DNA from: a virus
IMG/VR virus record: IMGVR_UViG_3300004369_000004
Coordinates: 36,864 to 100,863 of that record
Length of the DNA stretch: 64,000 nucleotides
Reading direction: 5' to 3' (one strand)
Shown here: in pieces, positions 5,891-31,156 of the stretch
Layout of the letters: every line of letters starts with the position of its first letter
Position numbering within the stretch: the first letter of the stretch is position 1
The notes under the pieces: generated by a model
What the model saw: only the letters and a program-made list of their open reading frames with translations
The model's database searches: none
What the model was told of the DNA's origin: nothing
Position numbers and translations under genes: made by a program

Positions 5891-8800
5891 TTATTTTTTC
5901 TTACGGAAACCTCTTACAGACTTTTTCTTTTTAAAAGGATTTAAGTAGTGCTCCATCTCTCCACCCAGCTTCATTCCCCATTGTTGATCAGGTCTGGTAC
6001 CAGGCAAATTTATAGGAGTACTTCCACCAGGAAAACCTGGAGGATTTTGGTTAAATTGAGTTTGATTCCTTTCCCACTGCTGTCTTGCTTCAGGAGTTAG
6101 TACAACAGGAGATTGGGGAGTTGGGGTATCCCAAGCACTCCAATCTCCCTCTTGAGGTTGTTGAGTTTGAGGAGAACCACCTGCAGGTACTTGAGTAGTT
6201 TCTACAGGAGACTCAGAAGTGTTAGTAGGAGGCGCAGGTGTACCAGGTGTAGATGTACTTACAGTTTCAGAACTTGTTTGTCTCCATCCAGTGCTTGCAG
6301 TATAAGGACCTGTTTGAGTAGCACCTGCAGGTACAGTAGAAGTAGTTACACCTGTTGAAGGGCCCCAACTTACGCCAGAAGTGCTATTAGGATTAATTAT
6401 AACCTTACCATCTTTATCCATTGCAAGATTAGGACCATAGTTTTCAAAGAAAAATTCTTTAGTGTTCTCTGACTGATCCCACTTATTTCTGTTGCTAATG
6501 AGAGTATTGATAGCTTCTTGTCTATTTTCTCCTTGTGCAGATTTTGCACCTGCTACTCTCTCATTCATCACACTATCAAGTACATCTGCGTTATAAACGT
6601 CTGCTCTAAACTTAGCATCTGCATTGTACAAGTCAGCTTTCCAACGCCCTTCAGCGTCATAATTTTGTTTTGTTTGAAAAGCATTCTCTTTTGTCTGAAG
6701 TCCTGCAATATAAGCTTGTGTAGGATCTGCACCATAACGCATAGCCGCCATTGCATTGTTATCAGCATCTTGAAGTTGAGATTGAATATTTAATGTCTGA
6801 GGACGCACATAAGGAGCATCTACTTCAGGTAAAACATAGTTGTATGTGTCTTGACCCATTGCATACAATGAAGGAATAGACTGACTAATAGGATAAGGAT
6901 TTCTTACATAGTCAGCTCTTTCAAAGTTTTTAATAATATACTCATTACCTCCTGGAGGTCCTGGAGTTGTAGGAGGGGGAGGTGGCATATCCTCCATATC
7001 AATATCTCCATACCCGTACTTCCTCTGAAGACCTGCAGCGTCAAAATGTTCATATCCTGACATAAGATCATTACCCATAGCAGGTCTGTACTCACTTGAA
7101 CCAAAAGTATTTTCCATACCTCTAGTTACATCTGCATATCTAGACTTATAAAAATCAGGATTCATAATCTGATCTTCTGAAAGTCCCTCAGTATTCATTC
7201 CTATCTGCTCTAGGAAGAATTTTCTATTTTCTTTTTGTTGTGCAGGATCTGTACTAGTAGCAATCTCCATTGCTTCTTGCTCAGATTTACCATCTGCTAT
7301 AGCTTTTTGGTAAGAGATTCTTTGCTCATATACCTCAGGAGTAAATCCTCCTACAAAAGAACCTGTACCTCTTAGCTTTCCCGTATTAGGATCTACCTTA
7401 GAGTATCCAGTAGTACCCATCTGAGTACCAATTTGATACTTATCAGTTCCAAAACCTTTACCTGTCTGATTAATTACAACAGACAAAGCCATCCTATCTT
7501 CGAAGGGGGGTTGAAAATCTCCTGTAATTATAAGCTTACCATCTGCACCTCTTTTCACGGTACCTGCCTTAAGTCCTTCCTCAATAACAGAATTTGCTCT
7601 ATCAAGCTTAGCTTTATTTTCAGGACTTTCAGAAGCCCAGGCCTGTAATTGTTCTCTACCCGACTTAATATCTACTGCACTAGAACTCTTAGTAGTGCTT
7701 ACTCTTTCATAGCCCTGAGGAGTCCACTGTCTAATCTTACCATCTTTAGTAATCACATAGTCTCCTTCTTGAAGATTTTCATCAGTATCTCTTTTAAGCT
7801 GGGTATCTCCAGGAATCTTATAATACTTCTTAGTAGTAGGGTCGTAATACTTGCCATCTTTTTTAGAAACCTGATAATCTGCTCCATCTTGCATATAGTA
7901 TCCACCCTCTTCCATGTTCTTCATAATCTTATGTTGAACGTCAGGAGGTAGAGCTCTAAAGCCAGGGTTGTTAATGCCTCCATCTCTCATGCCAGGTTGT
8001 TGTCTTTCCTGTTCAGTAGGCATAGGTTCTCCAGAAGAGTTACCATTAAGAATTTGTTGATCTCTAAACAACTGATCTAGAATCTGTTGATTTCTGCGAA
8101 CCAGAAGTTGAGCAGTCTGTTTGTCTACCGCAGAAGCAAAAGGATTATCCAAGATTTCTTGGAAATTCTTTAGATCATATCTTTTTGCTAACTCAGCAAA
8201 AGTTCTATTTTTCCACTTATCTGGGTAGTTGTAATTGTAATCATCTTGTTCTTTGTCTTTGAATTTTTCTTTTTGATCTTTCTTAACAAAGAAGTCTAGA
8301 TAATCTAATCCCATACCCATAGAAAGGTCTCCGCCTTCTTGAGCATACTTTTGAACCAAACCAAGTTTTTGCTTAGCTTTCATTTTGTGAAGATCGCTAG
8401 GCTTTAGATGATTAGAAAATACTTTGGTACCTTCGGGGAGAACTGTATTAATTCCTCCATTCTTATGAGAAGGTCCTTTGGCTAATTCAGTAGTACCGTC
8501 AGGAAGAATCAAAAATTCTCCCCCTTCGATCTCCACGTTAGCACCTCTAGAGTTGTTCATAGGAAGTCTGTTATTTAAATTCATGCCATCTTGGGCCATG
8601 ATTGTAGGCTGATATTCTGTACCACCAGAAGTAGTGCGTCCATACATCCAGTTATAGTCATAAAGAGGATTTGAATCTACTCCTCTTTGTTGAATTGCTT
8701 TACTAAGATTTCTGTTTTTTCTAATGTCGTCTTTATAATTTAATACACCACGTACTCCCAACAAGCCCATTGTTGCCATGTCTTGCCAGTTGTTCTTTGT

Positions 8801-9199
8801 GTAATCCCAAGCCTTTTGAAAAAATCCAGGATCCTCAGGCTGAGCAGAATCAGGCTGAATTCCTCTAGTCAATTCATCAGACTTAGAGAATTTCTGCTGC
8901 TCTGTAGGCATATTATAATCAGGGATTTTGTACATATCCTGATCATAAGGAGAAGAAGGACGTTGTACATTAGGCTCCTCTCTTGTAGGACCCCAAGAAA
9001 TATCTTGTCTTCTTTGATCATTAGGATTAGCAAAATCCAACTCATAAGGTTGGTTAGGATTATTATTTACCAACGTACCAGGGGCTGGTGGAGCAGGAGG
9101 ACCTACTACCTCAGCATAAGGATTAGCATCCAAAGGATCTTGTCCCCCTACCTGAAATGATTTCTTGCCAAATTTTTTATATAAGGAATGACGCAACAT
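5891..9199 (-). CDS. Putative virion cargo protein, 1102 aa
   Basis: Contains the VEIEGGE...GPSHKNGGI...VFSNHLK block that I recognise from crAss-like cargo proteins; Pro/Gln/Thr-rich disordered ends; several xQxGG-type motifs; own promoter upstream. Confidence 0.65.
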   Translation of the reverse strand: MLRHSLYKKFGKKSFQVGGQDPLDANPYAEVVGPPAPPAPGTLVNNNPNQPYELDFANPNDQRRQDISWGPTREEPNVQRPSSPYDQDMYKIPDYNMPTEQQKFSKSDELTRGIQPDSAQPEDPGFFQKAWDYTKNNWQDMATMGLLGVRGVLNYKDDIRKNRNLSKAIQQRGVDSNPLYDYNWMYGRTTSGGTEYQPTIMAQDGMNLNNRLPMNNSRGANVEIEGGEFLILPDGTTELAKGPSHKNGGINTVLPEGTKVFSNHLKPSDLHKMKAKQKLGLVQKYAQEGGDLSMGMGLDYLDFFVKKDQKEKFKDKEQDDYNYNYPDKWKNRTFAELAKRYDLKNFQEILDNPFASAVDKQTAQLLVRRNQQILDQLFRDQQILNGNSSGEPMPTEQERQQPGMRDGGINNPGFRALPPDVQHKIMKNMEEGGYYMQDGADYQVSKKDGKYYDPTTKKYYKIPGDTQLKRDTDENLQEGDYVITKDGKIRQWTPQGYERVSTTKSSSAVDIKSGREQLQAWASESPENKAKLDRANSVIEEGLKAGTVKRGADGKLIITGDFQPPFEDRMALSVVINQTGKGFGTDKYQIGTQMGTTGYSKVDPNTGKLRGTGSFVGGFTPEVYEQRISYQKAIADGKSEQEAMEIATSTDPAQQKENRKFFLEQIGMNTEGLSEDQIMNPDFYKSRYADVTRGMENTFGSSEYRPAMGNDLMSGYEHFDAAGLQRKYGYGDIDMEDMPPPPPTTPGPPGGNEYIIKNFERADYVRNPYPISQSIPSLYAMGQDTYNYVLPEVDAPYVRPQTLNIQSQLQDADNNAMAAMRYGADPTQAYIAGLQTKENAFQTKQNYDAEGRWKADLYNADAKFRADVYNADVLDSVMNERVAGAKSAQGENRQEAINTLISNRNKWDQSENTKEFFFENYGPNLAMDKDGKVIINPNSTSGVSWGPSTGVTTSTVPAGATQTGPYTASTGWRQTSSETVSTSTPGTPAPPTNTSESPVETTQVPAGGSPQTQQPQEGDWSAWDTPTPQSPVVLTPEARQQWERNQTQFNQNPPGFPGGSTPINLPGTRPDQQWGMKLGGEMEHYLNPFKKKKSVRGFRKKK

Positions 9200-9268
9200 T
9201 AATTTTAATTTTAAAAGTTATTAATTATAACCTTGAATATTAATAACTGGATGAATTACAGTAGTATA

Positions 9269-9298
9269 CAAATATACAAGATTAATTAAAAAATTCAA
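9269..9298 (-). promoter_or_regulatory. Bacteroidota sigma-70-type promoter (TTG-N19-TATATTTG) for the cargo genes
   Basis: Minus strand reads TTG aattttttaattaatcttg TATATTTG; spacer is exactly 19 nt; 70 nt upstream of the 9199 start. Confidence 0.75.
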
Positions 9299-9301
9299 GC
9301 T

Positions 9302-9442
9302 TTATTTACCTTGACCCCTGTAACGCTTAACGTAGTTCTGACTTGTCTTAGTTTTGCTTGATTTTGTTTTAGCATGTACACCTGGTCTTGCAACCTTAGG
9401 TCTAGGTGTAAAAACACCGCCTTGAGATTTTAACTTTGCCAT
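9302..9442 (-). CDS. Small very basic protein, 46 aa (MAKLKSQGGVFTPRPKVARPGVHAKTKSSKTKTSQNYVKRYRGQGK)
   Basis: Translated by hand (below the track cutoff); ATG at 9442, TAA at 9304-9302; fills the gap in the operon; no acidic residues. Confidence 0.75.
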   Translation of the reverse strand: MAKLKSQGGVFTPRPKVARPGVHAKTKSSKTKTSQNYVKRYRGQGK

Positions 9443-9460
9443 ATTATAAGATATTATTAA

Positions 9461-9937
9461 TTAACATTTCCAACGTCTACGTGCTTGTCTGATTCTAGAA
9501 TTAGGATCATTCTTTGTCTTCTCAGAAGAACGTTTTAATTGACCTAATGATCTTGCACAGTAAGACTTTCTACGTTTAGCTGCAAGCGAGCCTGGTTTAA
9601 CCTTACCAGTTACAGCTGTTTTTAATTTAGATCCAGGATTAGCTTTTCTATAAGCTCTTACTCCCTTTTCTGTCATACCTGCTCCTTCTTTAGTTGGGCG
9701 ATAGTTAGCACCAGGACCCTTTGTTGTATGTCTTATAGTGCCTCCTTTAGCCATGTAAAGAGATTGCAGTTTATTTATCTTAGCACCATGCTTTGCTTTT
9801 CTCCAGGTGCCGCCTTTTGACTTATACCATTTAGCAGCCCAACCATTGGCATAGGCTGATGGATATACATCAAACTTTTGTCTAGCCATAGATTTAGCTC
9901 TAGACCAAAGACTTGGGTTATTAGGTTTATTTGCCAT
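9461..9937 (-). CDS. Small basic two-module protein, 158 aa (N-terminus like the DUF5872 N-half; C-terminus DUF6321-like)
   Basis: PSLWSRAK...KFDVYPSAYANGWAAKWYKSKGGTW and RRKSYCARS...PNSRIRQARRRWKC motifs; family names from memory. Confidence 0.6.
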   Translation of the reverse strand: MANKPNNPSLWSRAKSMARQKFDVYPSAYANGWAAKWYKSKGGTWRKAKHGAKINKLQSLYMAKGGTIRHTTKGPGANYRPTKEGAGMTEKGVRAYRKANPGSKLKTAVTGKVKPGSLAAKRRKSYCARSLGQLKRSSEKTKNDPNSRIRQARRRWKC

Positions 9938-12900
9938 TATTTTTTTCTTTTATGGTTATATGGAATTCTAGTTGACGAAGTCTTAGCTGCTTTAAACTTT
10001 GCTTTCTCAGTAGAAGAAAGTTCAGAAGAAGTCTTAGGAGTTTTACTACTTACTCGTTTAGAAGGTCTGCATGCAGGATAAGCTCTATTCTCTCCCTCTT
10101 GTCTACCACACTGTTTGCCTGTTTTAACATCTACCCACTTCTCAGCAAACCATCTATCTAAGCCACCATGTTGACCACCAGATTTATATTGTTTCTTTTT
10201 ATCGTAAAAAGACGATGATACTACTGTACCATTAACTCCTGGTACAGTCATTCCCCCATCTTGGTATAAAGCAGCATTAAAAGAAGAGTGTCCTCCGTGG
10301 AATCCAGTTGCCTTGCCTTTCTCCAGAGCATTCTTCCAAAGACCAGAAGCCTGTGGACTCTGAGTATTCATACCTGAACTAACTCTTCCTAAGTCTAATC
10401 TTTTTAAGTAATCATTCAAAGATTTGTAAGAACGAGTACCACGAACTACCTCTTCACCGATTCTAACAGCTTCTGTAGGAAAAACTCCTGCAGCACTATT
10501 TGACATTTGTAAACCAGGAATACTTCTTAAATAAGCTTTGTTTGTAATATCAGGAATATCTCCTCTATATAAACCAGGTCTTGTAGTTACTCCCCACTCT
10601 CTAGGTCCTTCTACTATAGTGTTTCTTCCCACTACGCGATTATAACGATCAGCTAGAGACTTCATTAACTCTTCCTTAGTTAATGCACTAGTAGTCAAAT
10701 CATTTATAGTAAGATTGAATAACTCTGGATCATCTGGAAAACCTTTGGAAAGAGAATGCATTCTCTCGATTGTTCCTTCCTCTAACAATTCATCAAAATA
10801 TCTATTAGGATTAGATCTGAATAAATCTAAACGTTGCCTTTGAAAATCATTTAAAGGAAAAGTAGCCCGTTGTCGTGGAGTATAAATAGTCAACTCATCT
10901 CCTCTTGGATTTAATCCTTGAACTCTGTATTCTAAACCAGAAACATTATTTGCAGGAATAATTTCATCGTTTAAGAGATCAAGATTTCTATTGAATATAT
11001 CTATGTACTCTTCTCTAGGAATATCAACAACCCCAGGTAACTTTTGATCAGGAGCCAAAGGTTTAAGTCTACCATAAACATCAGTTACAGTATTTCTATA
11101 TTCTTCAGGAGTCATAAGCTTTGCAATCTCTCTTTGTTGTGGAGAAAGCTTAGGAGAGCCCATTTCAAAATGGGACTGATTAACAACTGCTGGTCTAGGT
11201 TTAACTCTAACACTATTAGGATTAGAGCCTGAAATAAATTCTCTACTAGTAGTTGTCTGAGATTGAGGAGCTCTTTCAAATAAATCTAATTGTCGAGGTT
11301 GAGCAGAAGAAGCCTCCCCAGCAACATCATCCATTATCCTAGAGGTAGGAGTTGTCATTCGTAGTGCAGGACTTGCAACTTCATCTAGTGAGCGAGTAGC
11401 AGATCTTCTAGCTAATTTAGCCAAAGAACCTGCAGCTTTGCTAGTAAGTTTTGGAACCATACTAGCTGCACCAACTATAGTAGCAGGATCTAATACTGCA
11501 TCAACTGCAAACGCACCATAAGGATTTTGAATATCCATTGCTTCAGATGGAGTTTGTACTTTGCCAGTAAGGTTGTACATCATACCAAGTTGAGGCACCG
11601 TAAAAGGAGAGGTAAGAACTTGCGCAAAACTTCCTGCTATATCATTTCCAGTCTTATACCAGTTTTCTCCACCAGTAGCATCTGATATTCTTCTAGCCAT
11701 TTGACTACTAAAGTCATTTGGATCTGTATCATATCCATAAGGGTAAAAACCCATTCTATCAGCAATCTGTCTAGGCATCCTTTTATACCAAGGTGCTCTC
11801 TTTGATGTAATCTCAACAGGAGCTATTCTGTCAGGATTTTCAGCAGTAGATGTTTCTAGAGATCCGCCCGCTTGATATTGTCTAGTTTGGTACTCACTGA
11901 TAGGGTAAAGAGATTCTTCAGGAGTACCTTCCAAGGCTCCATCTTGCATATATCTAGTTGTATCTTTTTGATATCTAGAATACAATGCGTCTATGTCTAC
12001 AGGAATCTCTGCGCCATCTTGTGCAATCTTTTGCTTAGCTACATCTTCTTTAGCAAACAAGTACATGTACTTATTAATATCATTATCTGATAAGCCGATG
12101 TCTTGTAGCTGTTTATATTGTGCTTTATCTCCTTCTGAAAATCCTTCTTTATAGTTATTAATATCGTAACCAGGCTGAAGTAATTCGTAGCCTTGATCTA
12201 TAGAAGAATCTCTAAGAGCTTTTAGTCTAGCTTTTACTTCACTGGGATTTGAAAGATACTCATATTCTTTAGTCCTCTTAGGAGGATTAATAAAGCTATT
12301 AAGATCTTGAGATAAGACTTGTGTAAAGTAATCTCCAACTTTAGTAGCGCCAGGGGTGTAGGAGCTATCTAAAGAGTGCGATAATTCATGCCTAAAAAAA
12401 GATGGATTGTACTTACCCTTCTTTAATAGAATACTATGATCACCAGGTTTATACTTTGCATAAGTACTAGGTCCAAAGTTCATAAAAGACATATAAGGCA
12501 CATCTACACGTAGTTCGTCAAGATTAAGCCTTCTAGCATCAATCATATCCTGTACAGGTCTATCCTCGGAATCAGGCCCATAGAATTCTGTCTGTAATAG
12601 TTTTTTATACTCAGGAGTATTAAGTGCTTCAGTTTGTCTATCAACCTCAGCGCTAGCATCTCTATAGATTTGTCTCCTAGACAATCCACCTTTTTGCATT
12701 CGAGTCTCAAGAACTTCTTTATCTCCTGGAAATTTATATTCTTTCCCAGGCTGCATTACAACAGTCTTACCAGTTTGTAAACCTTTACCGAGTACAGGTC
12801 TTTTAAAGAAATCTTTTTCTCCATTAGGACCTTTCATAGTAATACGATTAGAAGAAACAATAACTTTGTTAAGTTTTTTATTCCATAAACCAGTTTTACT

Positions 12901-12999
12901 CTTAGGAATATTAGTCTTTTTAGACTGCGCTTTATTAGCAGGTTTTTTAATTCCTTTTTTTACTTTGGTAAATTGTTTGTATAACTGGCTGATTTTCAT
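9937..12999 (-). CDS. Multi-module putative cargo protein, 1020 aa, with an HExxH zincin-like domain and a C-terminal DUF5872-like half
   Basis: RHELSH motif plus downstream NPSEVKARL; C-terminal GGLDRWFAEKWVDV..CGR..YPACRPSKRVSSKTPKT; stop overlaps the next start (TAATG). Confidence 0.65.
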   Translation of the reverse strand: MKISQLYKQFTKVKKGIKKPANKAQSKKTNIPKSKTGLWNKKLNKVIVSSNRITMKGPNGEKDFFKRPVLGKGLQTGKTVVMQPGKEYKFPGDKEVLETRMQKGGLSRRQIYRDASAEVDRQTEALNTPEYKKLLQTEFYGPDSEDRPVQDMIDARRLNLDELRVDVPYMSFMNFGPSTYAKYKPGDHSILLKKGKYNPSFFRHELSHSLDSSYTPGATKVGDYFTQVLSQDLNSFINPPKRTKEYEYLSNPSEVKARLKALRDSSIDQGYELLQPGYDINNYKEGFSEGDKAQYKQLQDIGLSDNDINKYMYLFAKEDVAKQKIAQDGAEIPVDIDALYSRYQKDTTRYMQDGALEGTPEESLYPISEYQTRQYQAGGSLETSTAENPDRIAPVEITSKRAPWYKRMPRQIADRMGFYPYGYDTDPNDFSSQMARRISDATGGENWYKTGNDIAGSFAQVLTSPFTVPQLGMMYNLTGKVQTPSEAMDIQNPYGAFAVDAVLDPATIVGAASMVPKLTSKAAGSLAKLARRSATRSLDEVASPALRMTTPTSRIMDDVAGEASSAQPRQLDLFERAPQSQTTTSREFISGSNPNSVRVKPRPAVVNQSHFEMGSPKLSPQQREIAKLMTPEEYRNTVTDVYGRLKPLAPDQKLPGVVDIPREEYIDIFNRNLDLLNDEIIPANNVSGLEYRVQGLNPRGDELTIYTPRQRATFPLNDFQRQRLDLFRSNPNRYFDELLEEGTIERMHSLSKGFPDDPELFNLTINDLTTSALTKEELMKSLADRYNRVVGRNTIVEGPREWGVTTRPGLYRGDIPDITNKAYLRSIPGLQMSNSAAGVFPTEAVRIGEEVVRGTRSYKSLNDYLKRLDLGRVSSGMNTQSPQASGLWKNALEKGKATGFHGGHSSFNAALYQDGGMTVPGVNGTVVSSSFYDKKKQYKSGGQHGGLDRWFAEKWVDVKTGKQCGRQEGENRAYPACRPSKRVSSKTPKTSSELSSTEKAKFKAAKTSSTRIPYNHKRKK

Positions 13000-13003
13000 G
13001 TAA

Positions 13004-13375
13004 TTAGCACTTTTTAGATTTTCCAGAAAGGAAAGATTTCAAACTCATCTTACCGCCCTTTTTCATTTTAAGACTCATAATACCTACACGAGTGGGGGAG
13101 TAGTTTGGGATTGTAGATTTTTGCTGAGGTTGTTGTGGCTGTTGAGGCATCTCCATACCCATCTGACCCTTACGCATTCTAGACAAAGTCTGAGCAAGTC
13201 TGGCTCTTTGGCCTGTTACTCCCTTACTCTTAGCTTTCTTTCTAAGCCATTCTTTGTCAATAGTTCCTTCAGAAGTCATAGCACCTGCTTTCTTAGCAGT
13301 TGCTCGCAAGGCTCCAGGCTTTTTAATAGCGCCTTTGATCCAGTTACCACCCTTCTTCATTTCAAATTTTTTCAT
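13004..13375 (-). CDS. Small basic protein, 123 aa (NWIKGAIKKPGALR...RARLAQTL module)
   Basis: Lys/Arg-rich; MKKGG occurs twice; translationally coupled to its neighbour. Confidence 0.65.
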   Translation of the reverse strand: MKKFEMKKGGNWIKGAIKKPGALRATAKKAGAMTSEGTIDKEWLRKKAKSKGVTGQRARLAQTLSRMRKGQMGMEMPQQPQQPQQKSTIPNYSPTRVGIMSLKMKKGGKMSLKSFLSGKSKKC

Positions 13376-13752
13376 GACAATGTAAGCAAATATAATGTAC
13401 TAGTAATCAGAGCAATGATTTCATCAATAATATTTTGAATATGAGTATTCTCTACTCCAAATACAGTACGATGTTTCATTAAGTACTGCTTCAACTGAGT
13501 AAGGTGTTGTTTCGGATTTACATACTCAGAAGAAGGTATTTTAAAATTAACTATTTTACCCAAAGTGCCCATATAAGACTCAACAAGAGAGTCAGTTAGA
13601 TCTAGCAAACCGTCATAGTATTTATTCAAAGCTTTATGCTCTGCATAACTAGTAGTTTGTAGATGTACAATGTGCATTGTATCTCTAGAGTGAAACAGTT
13701 GACCTATAACAAGTTCAGGTTTAACTGTTGTAAAAATTTCTTTTTCTCTCAT
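13372..13752 (-). CDS. Ferritin/Dps-like four-helix protein (DUF5856-like), 126 aa
   Basis: HIVHLQTTSYAEHKALNKYYDGLLDLTDSLVESYMG and NIIDEIIALITSTLYLLTL match this phage ferritin-like family. Confidence 0.7.
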   Translation of the reverse strand: MREKEIFTTVKPELVIGQLFHSRDTMHIVHLQTTSYAEHKALNKYYDGLLDLTDSLVESYMGTLGKIVNFKIPSSEYVNPKQHLTQLKQYLMKHRTVFGVENTHIQNIIDEIIALITSTLYLLTLS

Positions 13753-13754
13753 GA

Positions 13755-16700
13755 TTATATTGTTGTTTGGTTAGTTTGTGTGATTTGTATAATGTTGACA
13801 AATTTATATCTGTTGTATCTATCTTGAATTAATCTTACTCTAGTAAAGTCTGATTTAATCTTATTCTTTTGGAATGACACACTTACGTTTCTTACTGCTT
13901 TGGTGTTAGGTAATTTATCAATTGGGTATTGTGCGGCCAAGTCAGCCCAGTCACTAGTCCAAAGAGATTGACCATTAGCTTGTGCGGCTATATTCCAGAA
14001 TCCGTTAAATGTAAACTTGTTTTCTCTTCTAGACAAAATAGTATCAATACCTGAAGTACCTACTCTAGGATATTGTAATTTTTGTCTAGTGTTTCCAAAT
14101 TGCTCAGGAATCAAATTGACAATACCAGAAGACTGCTCACGATTATAAATAATAGCTTTTGTAAAGTTAGCTGTATTTTTATTCTTTCGATCTGCCGTGG
14201 ACAGTGAGTAATAGTTTTGTCGTGTATAATACTCTTGTATCTCCGCAAACAAGCTGACCGAAGTAACAGTGTGATTAATAGGAATGCTGTTAACAGCATA
14301 TTCAAGGATATAGGGGTATAATTTACCATAGTAGGTTTGATATACAAAAGGACTTAAGTTATGATTCCAAATAGAAGCACCTTGAGCTCTATTGATTATA
14401 GTTTGAAAATGTCCTAGTTGAGGTACAAAGAAGTTTGGCAAGAACGAATAGAACGAAATAAAGTTCTTAAGCTTTGGAGAGTAAGCTACTGTCCAAGACT
14501 TGTCCTCAAAGTATCTAGTATCGTCCAAACGAATTCTAGTCTTCGTATTACCTGTTCTAAGAACATAATAACGATAATCAGGATCTAATCGATCTGTTAT
14601 GTAATCTACTGTTGTATTGCCCGTTCTGTATGAGGGGACAACTCTGTAGTCTTTCTTAGTTATAAAGACTCTTTCAAAGCGCTCATCCCAACCCATTACA
14701 ATACCGATGCCTAAAGAAGGTACATCAGTATCTACACTAGGTAGATCTTTTAAGATTTGGAAAGGAAGATTTTCCTTAAACCAGTTGTAGTTAAGCTGCG
14801 TCTTGATTTCGTTAAATCCTTGACCACTAACTTGATATACATGTCCACGCTTAGCATCTACCCAGAAAGTACCAAACTCAGTTCTTACATAAGCCTTATG
14901 TTGAGAACCAATATAACCAAGATCCGTATTAGACAAGTCAACAGGTTTCTGTTTAAACATGTCTGCATTACCAATCTCTAGTTGATATGGTGAGGTAGAA
15001 GTAAGAACAATTCTAGCATTATATACTTTGGTTGTGTTCTCAAACCTAGCATATACTTTTTCAGTCTCTCCCGCATTTAAATCAATTAAACGACCTCCCT
15101 CTTTCGGGAAGTCATATTTGTTACCAGGTCTGTAGCTCAACCATCTATCTGTAGATAGATTAGAGTTCATATCAGTAGCTTGATCAGAGTAAATCACTCT
15201 ACTTTGGTGATTAACAATACACTCTAAAGAAGGATACTTAAGAAGATATGGGAAGTTAGGAGACTTATTCTGAGAAGAGTAAGTTGCATTGTAGTGATAA
15301 AAATTATCAAACTTAATCGGAACGTTTCTTTCCTGCAACCAATCATCAGGAATACCTCCACCTACATTAGGATAGAAGTTTTCTTTATCAAGGTCTCTAC
15401 CATGTCTAAAGTGAGTATTAATATCCGACTCTACAAAGAAGATAGGAATACCATAAGAAGCTGTATAGAATGCTCCTCTCTTATAATATCTGTGCAATCC
15501 ATGAATTGGATCTAAGGATGTTCTCTTTACAAACCTAGACCATATAACATTAATGCCCGAAATAACAAGAGAATTGGATGATAGAATAGCCAAAGCACCT
15601 GCTACTCCTGTAGCAGTAGTAGCAGCAACGGCAACTGCATAACCCGCAACTACTAGTAAAAGAGCTCCTGCTACGTCACCTGCATCTACAGTGTCAACAT
15701 CATTTGATGTGCCATAAAAATATGTAGGATAGGCTAAGTTAGGAAACAGAAAGTAGTCGAATGGCATTTCATCTACAACAACTGCTCTTGCGTTAACGTT
15801 AACCAAATTTCTAGTAAAGAAAGAATGTTTTCTCTTAAGTGCAAAAGGAGTAATATAAGTATCTCCTCCAAAAGCAGGATAGTATTTATATTCTAAAGTA
15901 ACACTACCATCTGCAAGTCTTACAAGATCTTGTTTGTATCCAGTAGAGATATATCTCATATTCTGGAGTTGTCCATATTGATTTGGAAACTGCCTCTTCA
16001 CAGAAGCGTAGATTGCTCTAGTTTTTCTCTTTTCATGCTCAGCTGTAATATCTCCACCATGCTCAGTAGCAATATATCGAGAGTCGTCTACGATTTGTCG
16101 TTCTGAGTGAGTAATTGGAAATTTAGTCTTAAGATAAACTCCTGTTTCTCTTAGTCTATTATGAAGAGGAGCATCGTCAAATACTTGAACAATTCTTTCG
16201 TTGATATAATAACCAAGCTCAATAAATCTTTTAGAGTTTCCTTTATGCGCTGGATTTCTAAGAGGATCAATTTTAATAAACTGATTATAGGTAGCAATTG
16301 AATTATACTGATAAGCAAAATTTTGAAATGGAATAAGCTTTTCGACTATCTCTAGGATAATTTGCTCATTCATCATAAGCTTATCATATCGAATATTTAT
16401 TCCAGATTTATTAGTTAGCCCAGGAGTAACGCTAAGAATTTCTGCATCACTTTCTCCTTTAAACTCAGCAGAGAGAAGAGCTGATATTAATCCAGCATCA
16501 TAATATGCTCCTTTATCTATAAAGCGATATTGGGGGTGATCTTGTACTTGCTGAAAATGTCCTCTAACCTTACCTACTTCTACAGTCTCAAACTTAAGTT
16601 CAGTTCCAATCTTAGGATATTGGAAAGAAGTATCAGGAGATACAAAGTTAAATCTAAAAGCACTTCCAGTTTCTCTAATAGACTTAAAGCCATCTAAAGG

Positions 16701-19700
16701 AGCGCTTATGTCTGTACCAAGATCAGTTAGACCAGTCTCAATTCCAAAAAATCCTAATCTACGGCCTCTAGATTCATAAGTCCATTTAACATCTTGTCTT
16801 AGATATGGATCTACTCTTAAGTCGTTATAGGGATAGTTTGAATAATAATATTTTTGGTTAGTACCAGTTGAGTTGTCTGTGTACGTTCCTACATCATAAA
16901 GAAGTCCTTTAGCAATTACAGATTTATTTCCTACACGATTAGCTCTTACTAGCTCATAACCACAGATAACATCTTTAATAGGAATCTCTAGCTTTCTAAT
17001 AGGATCATATACAGTATACTTATATGTGCCATCTGAGTTTTTCTCATTAAGCAAATTAATCATTGTTTGCTCAACAATTCTAACTCCAATAGGATAAATC
17101 CAAGATTGTGAGTTATTAGATACTTTACTATCTAATTTTCCAGCAGAAGGAATCTCATGATCGTGGATGTGCGTTATAGCAGAATCAGGAAATTTATGAT
17201 GACGAATAGGCTTACCTCCTAATGCATCAGGATTGTAATAAGGAGCGTTAGGATCAGTATCCTGTTCCCAAATCTCATCATAGCACGGATAAACTTCTTC
17301 TGATTCCCAGTATGCAAATGTGCCTCTCTTATCGTTATAGATTGCACAGTTGTATTGTTTCTCAATACTATTTGCATCATCTATAGGTAGGGCAAAAGAC
17401 TCTCCTTCCCCTGCGGTGTTATAGACCTGCCATCTTTGAAGTTGGTCAGGAATCTCACAATCTGTCTTTGCTACATATACATCCTGGTTAGAGAAAGAAG
17501 ACTCAATAATAGTATCATCTGATGTTTTCTTTCTGCCTGGAATATGGAAGACATCTGTGTATTTTCCGTTTTTAAGTTTGAACTTAATACCAAATCCATA
17601 AACCTCATCACGTTGATATGTACGGAAAAAGTAAGCTACCTCTGGACTAGAGTAGTCCATCATGCCATCTGCAGGCATTTTAACAGTTTCCCATCGAAGG
17701 TCTAGTCTAGAGGCAAATCTCTGGAAGTTAAACTTAGGATACTCCTCAAGATCCGCTAACATCAATATATCATTTTGCTTCTCAATAATGTTAGCAGTCT
17801 CGTAGTGAGGAGAACGAATAAGCGGTACTATAGAAGAAAATGTCGATTTATAATCGCCTGTATAAATTACTTGATCTTTGTCAGTAGCCTGATTAACTCG
17901 GTAGGTACCAACAAGGTGATAAGTAGTAGTAGTATTTACAGTCTCAGCTACAACAAGATTAAAGTATTCAAAGATTCTAGTCTTATGGAATACCTCTACC
18001 TCAATGGCTTTAGAAGTAACATACTCTGTTTGCTCTGTAATAGCTCTTTCAAAAATTGGAACAGGGTTGTTAAAGTCACAATAATCAGTAAGCTCTAATC
18101 CTTGCTCATCTGAATAGGCAATTGCAAAAGAATAAACACCTGCAGGAAGTTGCCCTCCACTAGATATATTTACAGTGTGTACTTCAGGAACACAAAAATC
18201 TGGAAAGATCTTAGAGTCTTCGCAAGATTCTTTAATGCAAGTTCTTTCTGTTCCACAAGCATCTCTACCATAAGGATATTCTATTGAGAAGTATCTAGGA
18301 GGATTGTTTCTGCTTATATAATATATCTTGGTCTCACAGTCATCTATGCGGTATTCTGCTTGAACAGGAAATGCCACGTCAAAGTTGAGGCAGCAATTAT
18401 TTTTAGAGAAAGAAGCTGTTCCAGTTTCTGCAACATCAACTTCTTGAATTATATATAGTCTATCATGTTGAAGCTTAAGAGATCCTTTACGTGCTGTAAA
18501 TCTCTTTTGTTCTCCAAGCATAAAGTCTGTTATCTCATTACCATTACAATCGGTGTATGAGAAGTATTTTTCAATTGTAGAATAGTCTGTACCAGTATTG
18601 ACTATAACTCCATCTGACTCTAACTGAATGCCAGAAGACCTATAACCAAGAACATACTCAACGCAAGTGCCTGGACAGAAATCTAGACAATCATCTACTA
18701 CAAGATCTTCATAAACACAACACTGTCCAGTCACTTCACCATCTACTACTTGAGGAGTAGTTTCTAGCTTGTAACAACCCTCAGTACAATTCTCAGGATT
18801 AACCTGCAGGACAGTACCCTCAGGACATTCCTGAGTAAGGATCTTAACTAACTCAGTCTTGTTGTCAGTTGTAAAAACAAGATTCTCTTGAGCAGGTCCA
18901 TAAATATCCTCAATTGATTGGGCAGTAAGAATTGTGTTAAAATCTGTATCATAGATTTCAGCTGCAATCATTTGCGCAACTCCATAATCCCAATACTCTA
19001 AAGAGATTGTATGATTACCTGCAGGAAGTTGAACAGGATAAATATGAAATCTACCATAGAATGCGTGGTTTCCACCGCTAGCATCTAGATGATTCTGCAC
19101 AAATGGAATGCTTGTAGTATCAATAGGATTACCATTAGCATCATATGTGTTAGGATCAATAATATAATTTCCGTTAAGACCTATTCTAAAACGGTTATCT
19201 GCTGCGATACCAATGTAATAAGTTTTAGTATCTTGAATACAGATAGTTTGTTCATACCCAACCCATTGATTTGTAACAAGAACATTATTAAACTTTGTTT
19301 GAATTGCAATCTTGTTAATATGTCTCTGCAGATATGGTACACTAGCAGCGCCCCACCAAGAAGGTAATAAAGCATAAGTACCTACACCATCAGATCCCCA
19401 ACCAGGCTCATATAAAGCGGCACTATAAAGTCCCCAAGCAGAATTAGAAGCAGGAGAACAAGTATAAGTAAGTGTTTCTCTTGTAGGAATTGTATAGACT
19501 TCTCTAATACATTGTCTAGTTGCAGCATCAAATGTGTAGCCATCAGGACAAGTATAAGTCAAAGAAGTTTGTCCAGAAGTTGAATTAACATTAGAGCCAG
19601 TTACAACTTTACCATTCTCGCAACCGCAATCTTCTGATTCAGACAATACTACTTCAAGACAAGAGTTGTTTATATTAGTAACTTGACCGATGCGAGAACG

Positions 19701-19961
19701 TCCATCTGGATGCGCTAAGAACAAAATCAACTTAGACTGCTCTACTATGTTAGTATAACCTACTACCTGAAATCCATCAAAACCTGCTTGGTTAAAATTA
19801 AAGCAGTTAGTATTACCAGGTTCGTTAGTATAAGTTACAGAGTCTCCGTCATGACTTTGTACATTAGCATTCAGAGCCCAAGTAATTTGATTTTCTTGGA
19901 TCTGAAAATTAATAGCGTCTAGATTAAGACCAATTATATTTTGATTTACCTTGTTCTGCAT
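13755..19961 (-). CDS. Tail muzzle / tail stabilisation protein, 2068 aa
   Basis: GLNLD N-terminus; GGQLPAGVYSFAIAY; YQRDEVYGFGI; PIRHHKFPD; YPIGV; FGGDTYITPF; C-terminal FISFYSFLP block. Size and position after the ring genes fit crAss-like order. Confidence 0.75.
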   Translation of the reverse strand: MQNKVNQNIIGLNLDAINFQIQENQITWALNANVQSHDGDSVTYTNEPGNTNCFNFNQAGFDGFQVVGYTNIVEQSKLILFLAHPDGRSRIGQVTNINNSCLEVVLSESEDCGCENGKVVTGSNVNSTSGQTSLTYTCPDGYTFDAATRQCIREVYTIPTRETLTYTCSPASNSAWGLYSAALYEPGWGSDGVGTYALLPSWWGAASVPYLQRHINKIAIQTKFNNVLVTNQWVGYEQTICIQDTKTYYIGIAADNRFRIGLNGNYIIDPNTYDANGNPIDTTSIPFVQNHLDASGGNHAFYGRFHIYPVQLPAGNHTISLEYWDYGVAQMIAAEIYDTDFNTILTAQSIEDIYGPAQENLVFTTDNKTELVKILTQECPEGTVLQVNPENCTEGCYKLETTPQVVDGEVTGQCCVYEDLVVDDCLDFCPGTCVEYVLGYRSSGIQLESDGVIVNTGTDYSTIEKYFSYTDCNGNEITDFMLGEQKRFTARKGSLKLQHDRLYIIQEVDVAETGTASFSKNNCCLNFDVAFPVQAEYRIDDCETKIYYISRNNPPRYFSIEYPYGRDACGTERTCIKESCEDSKIFPDFCVPEVHTVNISSGGQLPAGVYSFAIAYSDEQGLELTDYCDFNNPVPIFERAITEQTEYVTSKAIEVEVFHKTRIFEYFNLVVAETVNTTTTYHLVGTYRVNQATDKDQVIYTGDYKSTFSSIVPLIRSPHYETANIIEKQNDILMLADLEEYPKFNFQRFASRLDLRWETVKMPADGMMDYSSPEVAYFFRTYQRDEVYGFGIKFKLKNGKYTDVFHIPGRKKTSDDTIIESSFSNQDVYVAKTDCEIPDQLQRWQVYNTAGEGESFALPIDDANSIEKQYNCAIYNDKRGTFAYWESEEVYPCYDEIWEQDTDPNAPYYNPDALGGKPIRHHKFPDSAITHIHDHEIPSAGKLDSKVSNNSQSWIYPIGVRIVEQTMINLLNEKNSDGTYKYTVYDPIRKLEIPIKDVICGYELVRANRVGNKSVIAKGLLYDVGTYTDNSTGTNQKYYYSNYPYNDLRVDPYLRQDVKWTYESRGRRLGFFGIETGLTDLGTDISAPLDGFKSIRETGSAFRFNFVSPDTSFQYPKIGTELKFETVEVGKVRGHFQQVQDHPQYRFIDKGAYYDAGLISALLSAEFKGESDAEILSVTPGLTNKSGINIRYDKLMMNEQIILEIVEKLIPFQNFAYQYNSIATYNQFIKIDPLRNPAHKGNSKRFIELGYYINERIVQVFDDAPLHNRLRETGVYLKTKFPITHSERQIVDDSRYIATEHGGDITAEHEKRKTRAIYASVKRQFPNQYGQLQNMRYISTGYKQDLVRLADGSVTLEYKYYPAFGGDTYITPFALKRKHSFFTRNLVNVNARAVVVDEMPFDYFLFPNLAYPTYFYGTSNDVDTVDAGDVAGALLLVVAGYAVAVAATTATGVAGALAILSSNSLVISGINVIWSRFVKRTSLDPIHGLHRYYKRGAFYTASYGIPIFFVESDINTHFRHGRDLDKENFYPNVGGGIPDDWLQERNVPIKFDNFYHYNATYSSQNKSPNFPYLLKYPSLECIVNHQSRVIYSDQATDMNSNLSTDRWLSYRPGNKYDFPKEGGRLIDLNAGETEKVYARFENTTKVYNARIVLTSTSPYQLEIGNADMFKQKPVDLSNTDLGYIGSQHKAYVRTEFGTFWVDAKRGHVYQVSGQGFNEIKTQLNYNWFKENLPFQILKDLPSVDTDVPSLGIGIVMGWDERFERVFITKKDYRVVPSYRTGNTTVDYITDRLDPDYRYYVLRTGNTKTRIRLDDTRYFEDKSWTVAYSPKLKNFISFYSFLPNFFVPQLGHFQTIINRAQGASIWNHNLSPFVYQTYYGKLYPYILEYAVNSIPINHTVTSVSLFAEIQEYYTRQNYYSLSTADRKNKNTANFTKAIIYNREQSSGIVNLIPEQFGNTRQKLQYPRVGTSGIDTILSRRENKFTFNGFWNIAAQANGQSLWTSDWADLAAQYPIDKLPNTKAVRNVSVSFQKNKIKSDFTRVRLIQDRYNRYKFVNIIQITQTNQTTI

Positions 19962-29980: not shown

Positions 29981-31156
29981 TTATTTAAAATACTTGGAGA
30001 ATAGATCATCATCTGATTTTTTCCTCCTTGCAGTTTTCTTGGTTTTAGTCTTCAACTCGTTAAAGATTGAATTCGTTTCTTCAGAAACTCCTTTCTTTTT
30101 AACGGGAGTCAAGTCAAGGCCAGTTTGAACAAGCTTAGCTACAGCTAGAAACTTAGAAGGTTCTTCTTGTCTCATCTTAGCTAAAGAGTATTCAAAGTCT
30201 GAAATACGTTGCCCGTTTGGAAGAACATGTGGCTTAGAAAGAACAAAATCAAAAAGTTCGCTAGCTGAATTCTGGTTAATTGGATAACCTTCAATCTCTC
30301 CTTTAGAGATAGAATCCTCTAAAACTTTTGCATATTGCTCCTGACGCTCACGTTCTTTCATCTGCGCTTGTTGTACACGTGCAGCATTTTCTTGTGCCAA
30401 CAAATCTCTTTCTTGCTTCATCTTAGTTACAAGCTTAGAATGATATTTTTTAGCATAAGAAAACAAACGATCATTGTCTCTTGCATAGTTAAGTTGATCT
30501 TCAATCTCGTCTTCTTCCATACCTGTCTTAGCAAGGTATAGTCTAAAAACTCGTTCTTGGTTACCAGGACTATTCAAATCAATGTTATCTACAACTTGCT
30601 CGTTGTTAAACATTTTCAAATATTCATGGATAGGAACTTTATTGATAAAGATGTCCTCAACCATCTTAACTCCGTCTTCTCCGTATGTTTCCATCGCAAT
30701 CTCTTCAAGAGTGTCCCACGCTTTCTTTTCGATGCTATCATTCATCTTCTTAAGAAAGGTTTCTTCTGACCAGTCTAGATTTTCAGGATTTTCACCTTCT
30801 TCAAATTCTAGAATGCCAGCTTTAGCAAGACCTTTTCCAAAAACTTCGAAGTAGTTAACATCATCATCTGAATCATCTTCATCGATAATATCATCATCTT
30901 CATACTCTTCTGATTCCTCAGGTTCCTCAACAGTTTCTTCTACTTGTGTAGGAGCTTGTTGCGTAGCTTTAGGTAAATCAGTCTCTTCCTCATCTTCAGG
31001 ATCTAGAACAGGATCTTTAATTTCCTGTCGGCCATCCAAGATATCTGGAGCAATGTTTTTGTTAGGATCGTAAGACTCAATTGCGTCAATCGGATCGTCA
31101 CTGGAGAATGTGTCAAAGAACTCTAAGTTCTCTAATGGATTTTCATTAGTACTCAT
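29981..31156 (-). CDS. Acidic scaffold-like protein, 391 aa
   Basis: Very acidic disordered N-terminus plus coiled coil; lies between portal and MCP. Confidence 0.6.
   Translation of the reverse strand: MSTNENPLENLEFFDTFSSDDPIDAIESYDPNKNIAPDILDGRQEIKDPVLDPEDEEETDLPKATQQAPTQVEETVEEPEESEEYEDDDIIDEDDSDDDVNYFEVFGKGLAKAGILEFEEGENPENLDWSEETFLKKMNDSIEKKAWDTLEEIAMETYGEDGVKMVEDIFINKVPIHEYLKMFNNEQVVDNIDLNSPGNQERVFRLYLAKTGMEEDEIEDQLNYARDNDRLFSYAKKYHSKLVTKMKQERDLLAQENAARVQQAQMKERERQEQYAKVLEDSISKGEIEGYPINQNSASELFDFVLSKPHVLPNGQRISDFEYSLAKMRQEEPSKFLAVAKLVQTGLDLTPVKKKGVSEETNSIFNELKTKTKKTARRKKSDDDLFSKYFK

Follow-up and report, generated by a model that had tools for sequence, protein, structure and literature searches.

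Four proteins encoded directly after the muzzle gene of an uncultured aquatic crAss-like phage are punctuated by a short peptide, Met/Tyr/Phe-Gln/Lys-x-Gly-Gly (Phi-[Q/K]-x-G-G, where Phi is a hydrophobic residue), at which otherwise unrelated modules are joined. The proteins are P0001 (1102 amino acids, aa), P0002 (1020 aa), P0003 (158 aa) and P0004 (123 aa), and their genes lie in the 64,000-nucleotide stretch analyzed here (the window), which is part of the 100,863-bp virus record IMGVR_UViG_3300004369_000004. The motif is confined to genes directly after the muzzle gene, where it occupies flexible linkers. Sequence comparisons show that it is a conserved peptide selected at the protein level and that it marks points where modules are inserted, lost and exchanged between phages; these modules include enzyme payloads and small basic domains that are free-standing in other phages. 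We see about an even chance that the motif is the seam peptide of modular cargo proteins in a large aquatic branch of crAss-like phages, serving as a hinge or handle that stays uncut, and we favor this over a protease cleavage site, which we regard as unlikely.

An earlier note on this DNA had listed 17 hexapeptides with this signature. All of them were found in the proteins to which they had been assigned, along with one unlisted copy, MRYGA, in P0001 (Table 1). With a loose pattern ([MYFA][QKREA]xG[GAM]), the 2403 aa of the four proteins hold 18 matches, compared with 2.10 +/- 1.45 expected from composition-preserving shuffles, and none of 2000 shuffles reached 18. A strict pattern ([MY][QKRE]xGG) matches nine times against 0.32 expected. 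The other proteins in the window (17,524 aa) have nine loose matches where 7.6 are expected and no strict match, and across the whole 100,863-bp genome every other protein has zero to two loose matches, with one in each of three downstream giants. A Gly-Gly-anchored test, which is independent of the post-hoc pattern, found [MYF][QKRE]x in front of 10 of the 23 Gly-Gly pairs in the four proteins and in front of none of the 106 pairs in the rest of the genome (Fisher p 4.7e-9). The frequency is far above that in shuffled sequences and in non-cargo proteins, the two comparisons that the earlier note had proposed. Its observation that the capsid, portal and terminase proteins show no such density holds as well, with no match in the major capsid protein or terminase and two loose matches in the portal. 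The restriction to cargo genes that it suspected stands in so far as the motif is confined to the four genes, but it does not cover all cargo, since the RNA-polymerase-associated giants and a 649-aa protein are without the motif.

The glycine codons vary from copy to copy (GGG GGA, GGC GGA, GGT GGT and others), which argues for selection on the peptide and against a DNA repeat; a repeat at the DNA level was ruled out on the same ground, the glycine and flanking codons not being alike across copies. At 109 of 221 non-redundant sites the motif opens with Met, more often than with any other residue, and Tyr or Phe takes its place at half of the sites, so that internal translation starts at Met were also ruled out. 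The residue following Gly-Gly is diverse, mostly Q, E, M, T or I, with Pro at 18 of about 590 sites. We rejected an extended 15-residue consensus because no flanking position holds more than 0.7 bit of information among the 221 sites, and an excess of tandem copies because spacing is near random with a median of 101 aa. A GlyGly-CTERM/rhombosortase signal was discarded because the C-terminal tails are not hydrophobic.

The four genes belong to a tight minus-strand operon directly downstream of the muzzle gene, which encodes in order a 126-aa DUF5856 protein, P0004, P0002, P0003 and P0001, and which is followed by genes for proteins of 649, 2156, 2849 and 1941 aa. Tail ring proteins 1 and 2, portal, large terminase and major capsid protein are also encoded in the window. 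In crAss001 this slot is taken by gp45 and gp46, which are cargo proteins C1 and C2, and the RNA-polymerase-associated giants come next (PMC10172136). The gene order expected of C1 is found here, with four genes after the muzzle gene and before the RNA-polymerase-associated giants, as for crAss001 gp44-gp47. Because their slot matches the position of C1 and C2, we read the four genes as cargo genes.

Table 1. Genes, motif copies and N-terminal tags of the post-muzzle slot (positions are those of the window)
Feature	Position	Strand	Remarks
Muzzle protein (Pfam crAss_MUZ, PF25731)	13755..19961	-	without core motif; fixes the cargo slot of the four genes
P0004, 123 aa	13004..13375	-	MKKGG, basic module phrog_20603, MKKGG, short basic tail
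MKKGG, P0004 residue 6	13346-13360	-	
MKKGG, P0004 residue 104	13052-13066	-	
P0002, 1020 aa	9937..12999	-	mosaic cargo-slot protein
Tag LYKQF, P0002 residues 6-10	12970..12984	-	pattern scan
MQKGG, P0002 residues 101-105	12685..12699	-	34 homologue high-scoring segment pairs (HSPs) end at the site
AQDGA (326), MQDGA (351), YQAGG (375), P0002	11863..12024	-	disordered stretch 325-403
YQDGG (912), YKSGG (938), P0002	10174..10266	-	disordered stretch 894-951, before the DUF5872 tail; 98 homologue HSPs start there
P0003, 158 aa	9461..9937	-	first half of DUF5872, AKHGA, MAKGG, DUF6321
AKHGA, P0003 residue 48	9782-9796	-	weak motif variant
MAKGG, P0003 residue 62	9740-9754	-	
P0001, 1102 aa	5891..9199	-	cargo-slot protein; C1-like by position and architecture
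Tag LYKKF, P0001 residues 6-10	9170..9184	-	pattern scan
FQVGG, P0001 residues 15-19	9143..9157	-	end of the N-terminal leader MLRHSLYKKFGKKSFQVGG
AQDGM, P0001 residues 202-206	8582..8596	-	IMA[QK]xGA in orthologues; ordered stretch with a predicted local distance difference test score (pLDDT) of ~83; not a clear seam
AQEGG, P0001 residues 286-290	8330..8344	-	C-terminal end of helix 275-287, low-confidence linker next
MRDGG, P0001 residues 404-408	7976..7990	-	disordered segment 395-410, directly before the INNPGF module
Tandem MEEGG (429-433) and MQDGA (436-440), P0001	7880..7915	-	disordered segment 430-443
MRYGA, P0001 residues 820-824	6728..6742	-	turn between two helices of the C-terminal domain
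MKLGG, P0001 residues 1076-1080	5960..5974	-	before the basic C-terminal tail EMEHYLNPFKKKKSVRGFRKKK; site kept in close homologues

The enrichment extends to related proteins. Together, 101 P0002 homologues have 427 loose matches where 97 would be expected, and 150 representatives related to P0001 have 197 core motifs against 18.8 expected. In six crAss-like loci in IMG/VR, retrieved with the DUF5872 tail as query and not by the motif, the genes that immediately follow the muzzle gene account for all 51 core motifs, the remaining proteins (22,331 aa) having none; IMG/VR scans queried with whole P0001, whole P0002 or alignment A1 returned no loci. In Cellulophaga phage phi4:1, gp040 (L082:22710-25397), annotated as a virion protein by tandem mass spectrometry, has four F/YQxGG copies where 0.84 are expected. 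Leptolyngbya phage Lbo-JY46 has two motif copies, and the corresponding proteins of Flavobacterium phage FpV4 contain no core motif. The phi4:1 protein merges the N-module of P0002 (..SNSITMKG..) and the core domain of P0001 (EVEKGE..GETHEKGG) with these four joints, so that P0001 and P0002 look like derivatives of one C1-like ancestor.

Across more than 100 homologues the same five residues join unrelated upstream and downstream modules, in agreement with the mix-and-match arrangement that the earlier note had proposed. A single downstream module (for example GG-ETSTEQNP, GG-MSIPGVNGTV or GG-QHGGLDRWFAEKWVD, the hyphen marking the joint) is preceded by many upstream sequences, and a single upstream module, SYVDEYPM-MQxGG, precedes many downstream ones. 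Orthologous sites in proteins of 44-88% identity retain Phi and Gly-Gly but vary at x and in the adjoining linker residues. This, together with the clustering of homology breakpoints at motifs, bears out the conservation at domain junctions of homologues on which the earlier note had wished the idea to be judged.

P0002 is the clearest case. From its N terminus it comprises a leader, a beta N-module (36-102), a motif, a helical HExxH module (107-325), three motifs, a conserved low-confidence region, an alpha/beta domain (617-893), two motifs and the second half of DUF5872. Each of the six copies is inside an AlphaFold segment of pLDDT below 50 or at the edge of one, and of the internal BLAST homology breakpoints 48% are no more than 5 aa away from a motif, compared with 7% for random positions. 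In the homologue P0005, an insertion of ~440 aa sits exactly between the MQDGA and YQAGG copies of P0002. The N-module (residues 1-105) is common to ~44 homologues and the DUF5872 tail to ~116, with a variable middle that carries diverse Pfam domains; payloads in homologues include YkuD, amidase_2, SET, ADP-ribosyltransferase and LysM. P0002 and its homologues thus show the layout of polymorphic effectors, with conserved ends, a variable middle and breakpoints at a short conserved peptide. The division of P0002 described in the earlier note is correct for the N-module, the HExxH domain and the DUF5872 tail, but there is no motif between the hydrophobic region and the 617-893 domain.

Residues 106-326 of P0002 (12022-12684, minus strand) form a zincin-like HE(L/F/M)SH..D module, part of which, including the HExxH motif itself, is modeled at low pLDDT. 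The module is present in about 10 of 150 homologues at varying positions and always ends in A[QK]xGA. Being mobile and found in so few homologues, it is not a general processing enzyme, and a role of the HExxH domain as general protease was ruled out as that of a sporadic payload at differing positions.

P0001, for which we obtained no Pfam match, has a basic N-terminal leader, a beta domain, several folded modules, a long helical C-terminal domain and a basic tail. Its beta domain (219-290) is conserved, with the signature EIEGGE..GPSH..GG..LPEGTKVFS. AlphaFold places five of the eight copies in low-confidence linkers and two more at the end of a helix just ahead of one, and seven of the eight are in or beside segments with pLDDT below 50. 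Phi and Gly-Gly are present at site 286-290 in 7/7 aligned orthologues, and Met and Gly-Gly at site 404-408 are invariant in seven orthologues. The copy at residue 820 is probably a chance match, judging from its place in the AlphaFold model. Of the internal BLAST breakpoints, 16% are 5 aa or less from a motif against 8% at random, so that the claim of the earlier note that motifs fall at module boundaries is strong for P0002 and weaker for P0001. Whole-model Foldseek and VIA searches of P0001 and P0002 returned generic helical matches alone and no fold identity, and sequence searches of the PDB, along with PADLOC and NCBIfam, gave nothing. Upstream of the P0001 gene, ~70 nt from its start, the sequence TATATTTG (9269-9276, minus strand) fits the Bacteroidota -7 promoter consensus TAnnTTTG, so that this gene may be transcribed from a separate promoter within the operon.

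Both large proteins have a further element near the start, LY[KQ][KQ]F, that no other protein of the genome shares at this end. Within the first 16 residues it occurs in 14 of 100 and 14 of 132 homologues in the two families, where less than 0.3% are expected, which makes it a candidate shared N-terminal leader of both proteins. Some motif copies are themselves leader-like, such as MKKFEMKKGG- in P0004 and MLRHSLYKKFGKKSFQVGG- in P0001, and short standalone open reading frames (ORFs) start with a leader that ends in the motif (M-MKSGG-QHGG.. and MKQVSRLKEAYLAKGG-QHGG..). We infer that information for loading or ejection is likelier to reside in the shared leader (..LYKKF..Phi-x-x-GG) and the basic C-terminal tails than in the internal copies.

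The closest system of known structure is C1 of crAss001 (gp45; PDB 7QOG, 7QOI, 7QOJ, 7QOL and 8CKB), which like P0001 is encoded just after the muzzle gene (PMC10172136). The basic leaders of both end in Phe-x-x-Gly-Gly-Gln (NIFDTGG-Q in C1 and KSFQVGG-Q in P0001), and both C termini consist of Gly-Gly and a basic tail (AKGG in gp45). The two proteins also share repeated aromatic-Gly-Gly joints on either side of their ordered segments. In contrast to the motif described here, gp45 (L085:11988-14516) has a looser joint, [FY]-x(0-2)-GG, at ~8 sites and without Gln/Lys, and the slot in our genome differs in holding four genes with many accreted small modules and enzyme domains. Similarity beyond these features is weak: BLAST aligns the C-terminal helical regions of P0001 and gp45 with an E value of 0.19, and hhalign aligns P0001 824-922 with gp45 709-806 at an E value of 0.0074 and a probability of 5%. 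A search of the whole genome with Pfam PF25725 (crAss_CARG1), the profile of the portal-bound domain, found nothing at E<=10. A local hidden Markov model of P0001 130-280 matches FpV4 gp30 (5e-19) and phi4:1 gp040 (5e-12) and does not match gp45.

The virion structure of crAss001 shows an ordered C1 segment at residues 425-552 (PMC10172136). Residues 425-429 of C1 read A-F-G-G-W, so the ordered segment starts with A425-F-G-G428-W429 and a joint related to ours has been modeled as uncut. The ordered segments of gp45, 214-245 and 425-552, start four residues after SAYGG210 and at AFGG428, respectively, and FAYGG562 follows the second. The tail-bound and portal-bound parts of C1 were explained by one extended chain that bridges tail and capsid (PMC10172136). 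We propose that the joints of P0001 and its neighbors would likewise stay uncut in the virion, with the hydrophobic residue capping the preceding module and Gly-Gly providing a free hinge. Such a bead-on-string protein could be stored partly unfolded and be threaded from N to C terminus through portal and tail, as proposed for C1 of crAss001, and a partner in the virion may in addition use the peptide as a weak, multivalent handle.

The main alternative, which we consider unlikely, is that the motif is a protease cleavage site and that the proteins are polyproteins cut after or within Gly-Gly, at head maturation or after ejection, by a phage enzyme (for example a zincin-like virion domain) or a host protease, releasing small basic proteins and payloads. 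The earlier note had raised cutting during maturation and likened the motif to adenovirus and African swine fever virus sites. The substrates of adenain and pS273R do resemble the proteins studied here in their Gly-Gly-ended sites, the upstream hydrophobic residue and their location in the virion interior with small basic modules, and SUMO, to which the motif is loosely similar, ends in QxGG. Conservation on the N-terminal side of the site with a diverse residue after Gly-Gly is also what cleavage would predict. The likeness to (M/I/L)xGG is loose, however: the adenain consensus as quoted in the earlier note has its hydrophobic residue at P4, where the 221 sites have Gln/Lys, with the hydrophobic residue at P5. 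No clan CE cysteine protease (PF00770 and PF02902, no match at E<=10) and no member of Peptidase_C5, C48, C39, S78, S77 or ClpP was detectable in the genome, whose record is ~85% complete. A double-glycine leader system is also not indicated, given that PF03412 (C39) has no match in the genome, the motif is mostly internal and its consensus is not LSxxELxxIxGG. Autoproteolysis of the G-S/T/C type was ruled out by the residues that follow Gly-Gly. Further points against cleavage are the Pro found after some sites, the sporadic distribution of the P0002 HExxH module and the ~10% of neighboring copies that are less than 10 aa apart, at which cutting would yield very small peptides of 2-8 residues. 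With neither a Gly-Gly-directed nor a prohead protease family found and the crAss001 joint continuous in the virion model (PMC10172136), cutting during maturation is not borne out.

Several points nevertheless weigh against joints that stay uncut. The sole visible joint is a degenerate variant from a distant gut phage. The modules that occur as free-standing genes in other phages are the expected products of polyprotein release, and the leader that ends in the motif in short standalone ORFs resembles a propeptide. Because the record is incomplete, the gene for a protease could be missing. Zincin-like domains on crAss-like RNA-polymerase-associated proteins have been proposed as polyprotein processors (10.1101/2020.03.07.982082), although in our genome the giants for which such processing was proposed are without the motif. 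A plain hinge also leaves the conserved Phi and Gln/Lys unexplained.

That specific hydrophobic-plus-polar signature, needless for a bare linker, fits better with a multivalent loading or docking tag whose copies bind portal wing, tail-ring proteins, capsid interior or scaffold, so that the cargo co-assembles into the procapsid as in encapsulins. The presence of the motif in cargo-slot genes only and its retention at the N terminus of short standalone ORFs agree with such a tag, and both virion-bound ordered segments of crAss001 C1 begin at or four residues after a variant copy (PMC10172136). We nonetheless hold this reading, which includes the binding to shell or scaffold suggested in the earlier note, to be improbable. 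Contacts by the motif residues themselves have no structural support, AlphaFold puts most copies in disordered linkers, and the giant cargo proteins, which also have to be loaded, lack copies, as does FpV4 gp30: despite having the P0001 core domain, it contains no core copy and only one weak loose variant. Cross-linking of Gln and Lys copies finds no candidate enzyme, with no match to Transglut_core in the genome. The motif might instead be a functionless by-product of history, a relic of former N termini (Met) or of microhomology joining, in which only recombinants within linkers survive. The frequency of Met as first residue, the standalone ORFs that start with M-M[KR]xGG and the shuffled module order would suit this; Tyr/Phe at half of the sites, codons too variable for DNA microhomology, the retention of Phi and Gly-Gly at orthologous sites despite linker drift, and the lack of the motif where the same modules are free-standing genes of T7-like phages make it very improbable.

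Junction peptides are also known from polymorphic toxins and effectors, such as VENN in CdiA, PxxxxDPxGL in Rhs proteins and the MuF-fused phage head toxins. The proteins described here resemble these in that a conserved delivery part and variable payloads are joined at a short conserved exchange-point peptide. The toxins differ in having another motif, one per protein, and in being secreted bacterial toxins, whereas here the motif is repeated, lies in phage cargo and is accompanied by no immunity gene. Encapsulin cargo-loading peptides and the capsid-targeting sequence of T4 internal proteins are single, terminal signals. Like the leader-like N-terminal copy of our motif, they are short peptides that bring unrelated proteins into an HK97-fold shell; unlike them, most copies of the motif are internal and repeated.

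The small genes of the slot illustrate how modules move in and out of larger proteins. Pfam DUF5872 is split and permuted here, its second half ending P0002 (9937-10167) and its first half opening P0003 (9780-9937), whose start codon overlaps the stop codon of the P0002 gene by one base. The split arrangement is repeated in loci L003, L005 and L007, and Prochlorococcus phage P-SCSP2 encodes each DUF5872 half in a tiny gene of its own, located between those for scaffold and capsid. Because the halves are split, permuted and separate elsewhere, the Pfam family covers a pair of modules linked by a YKxxGG joint. In T7-like marine phages, both DUF5872 halves and DUF6321 are likewise separate tiny genes, placed between scaffold and capsid and free of the motif. 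In the 262-bp gap between the P0003 and P0001 genes, a very basic 46-aa ORF (MAKLKSQGGVF..., 9302-9442, minus strand) carries the variant LKSQGG. It has no NCBIfam match and no look-alike in the fetched loci, and it may represent a further small module that stands alone.

Two further genes of the window are of note. The first gene after the muzzle gene, inside the cargo operon, encodes the motif-free DUF5856 protein (13372-13752, minus strand), which PHROG annotates as 'starvation-inducible transcriptional regulator'. Between the portal and major capsid genes, a 391-aa protein (29981-31156, minus strand) has no Pfam, PHROG or NCBIfam match, and its position would suit a scaffold or some other factor in assembly.

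Crassvirales rank among the most abundant gut phages and also occur commonly in aquatic habitats. Even with the crAss001 structure, the question persists of how these phages load, store and eject their several megadaltons of cargo protein. That cargo proteins can be modular is already known. The seam peptide appears to be undescribed, as does the accretion onto cargo, by way of it, of small phage proteins that are free-standing elsewhere, and our literature search found no paper that links the motif to phage cargo. A junction peptide specific to cargo predicts where the chains bend or break and defines the units of module exchange, including peptidoglycan-active, SET and ADP-ribosyltransferase payloads, and phi4:1 gp040 (~98 kDa) provides a cultured carrier of the motif. 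Cellulophaga phage phi17:2 is a further cultured carrier, and gp041 has one weak copy. Should the peptide turn out to direct loading or processing, foreign proteins could be packaged in such phages by means of it. It is conceivable, though doubtful, that Phi-[Q/K]-x-G-G and the LYKKF leader together form a portable signal, be it the site of an unrecognized protease or a loading handle, for packing arbitrary modules and delivering them into Bacteroidota cells; were this so, these phages would possess a programmable cargo-injection system with its own address code.

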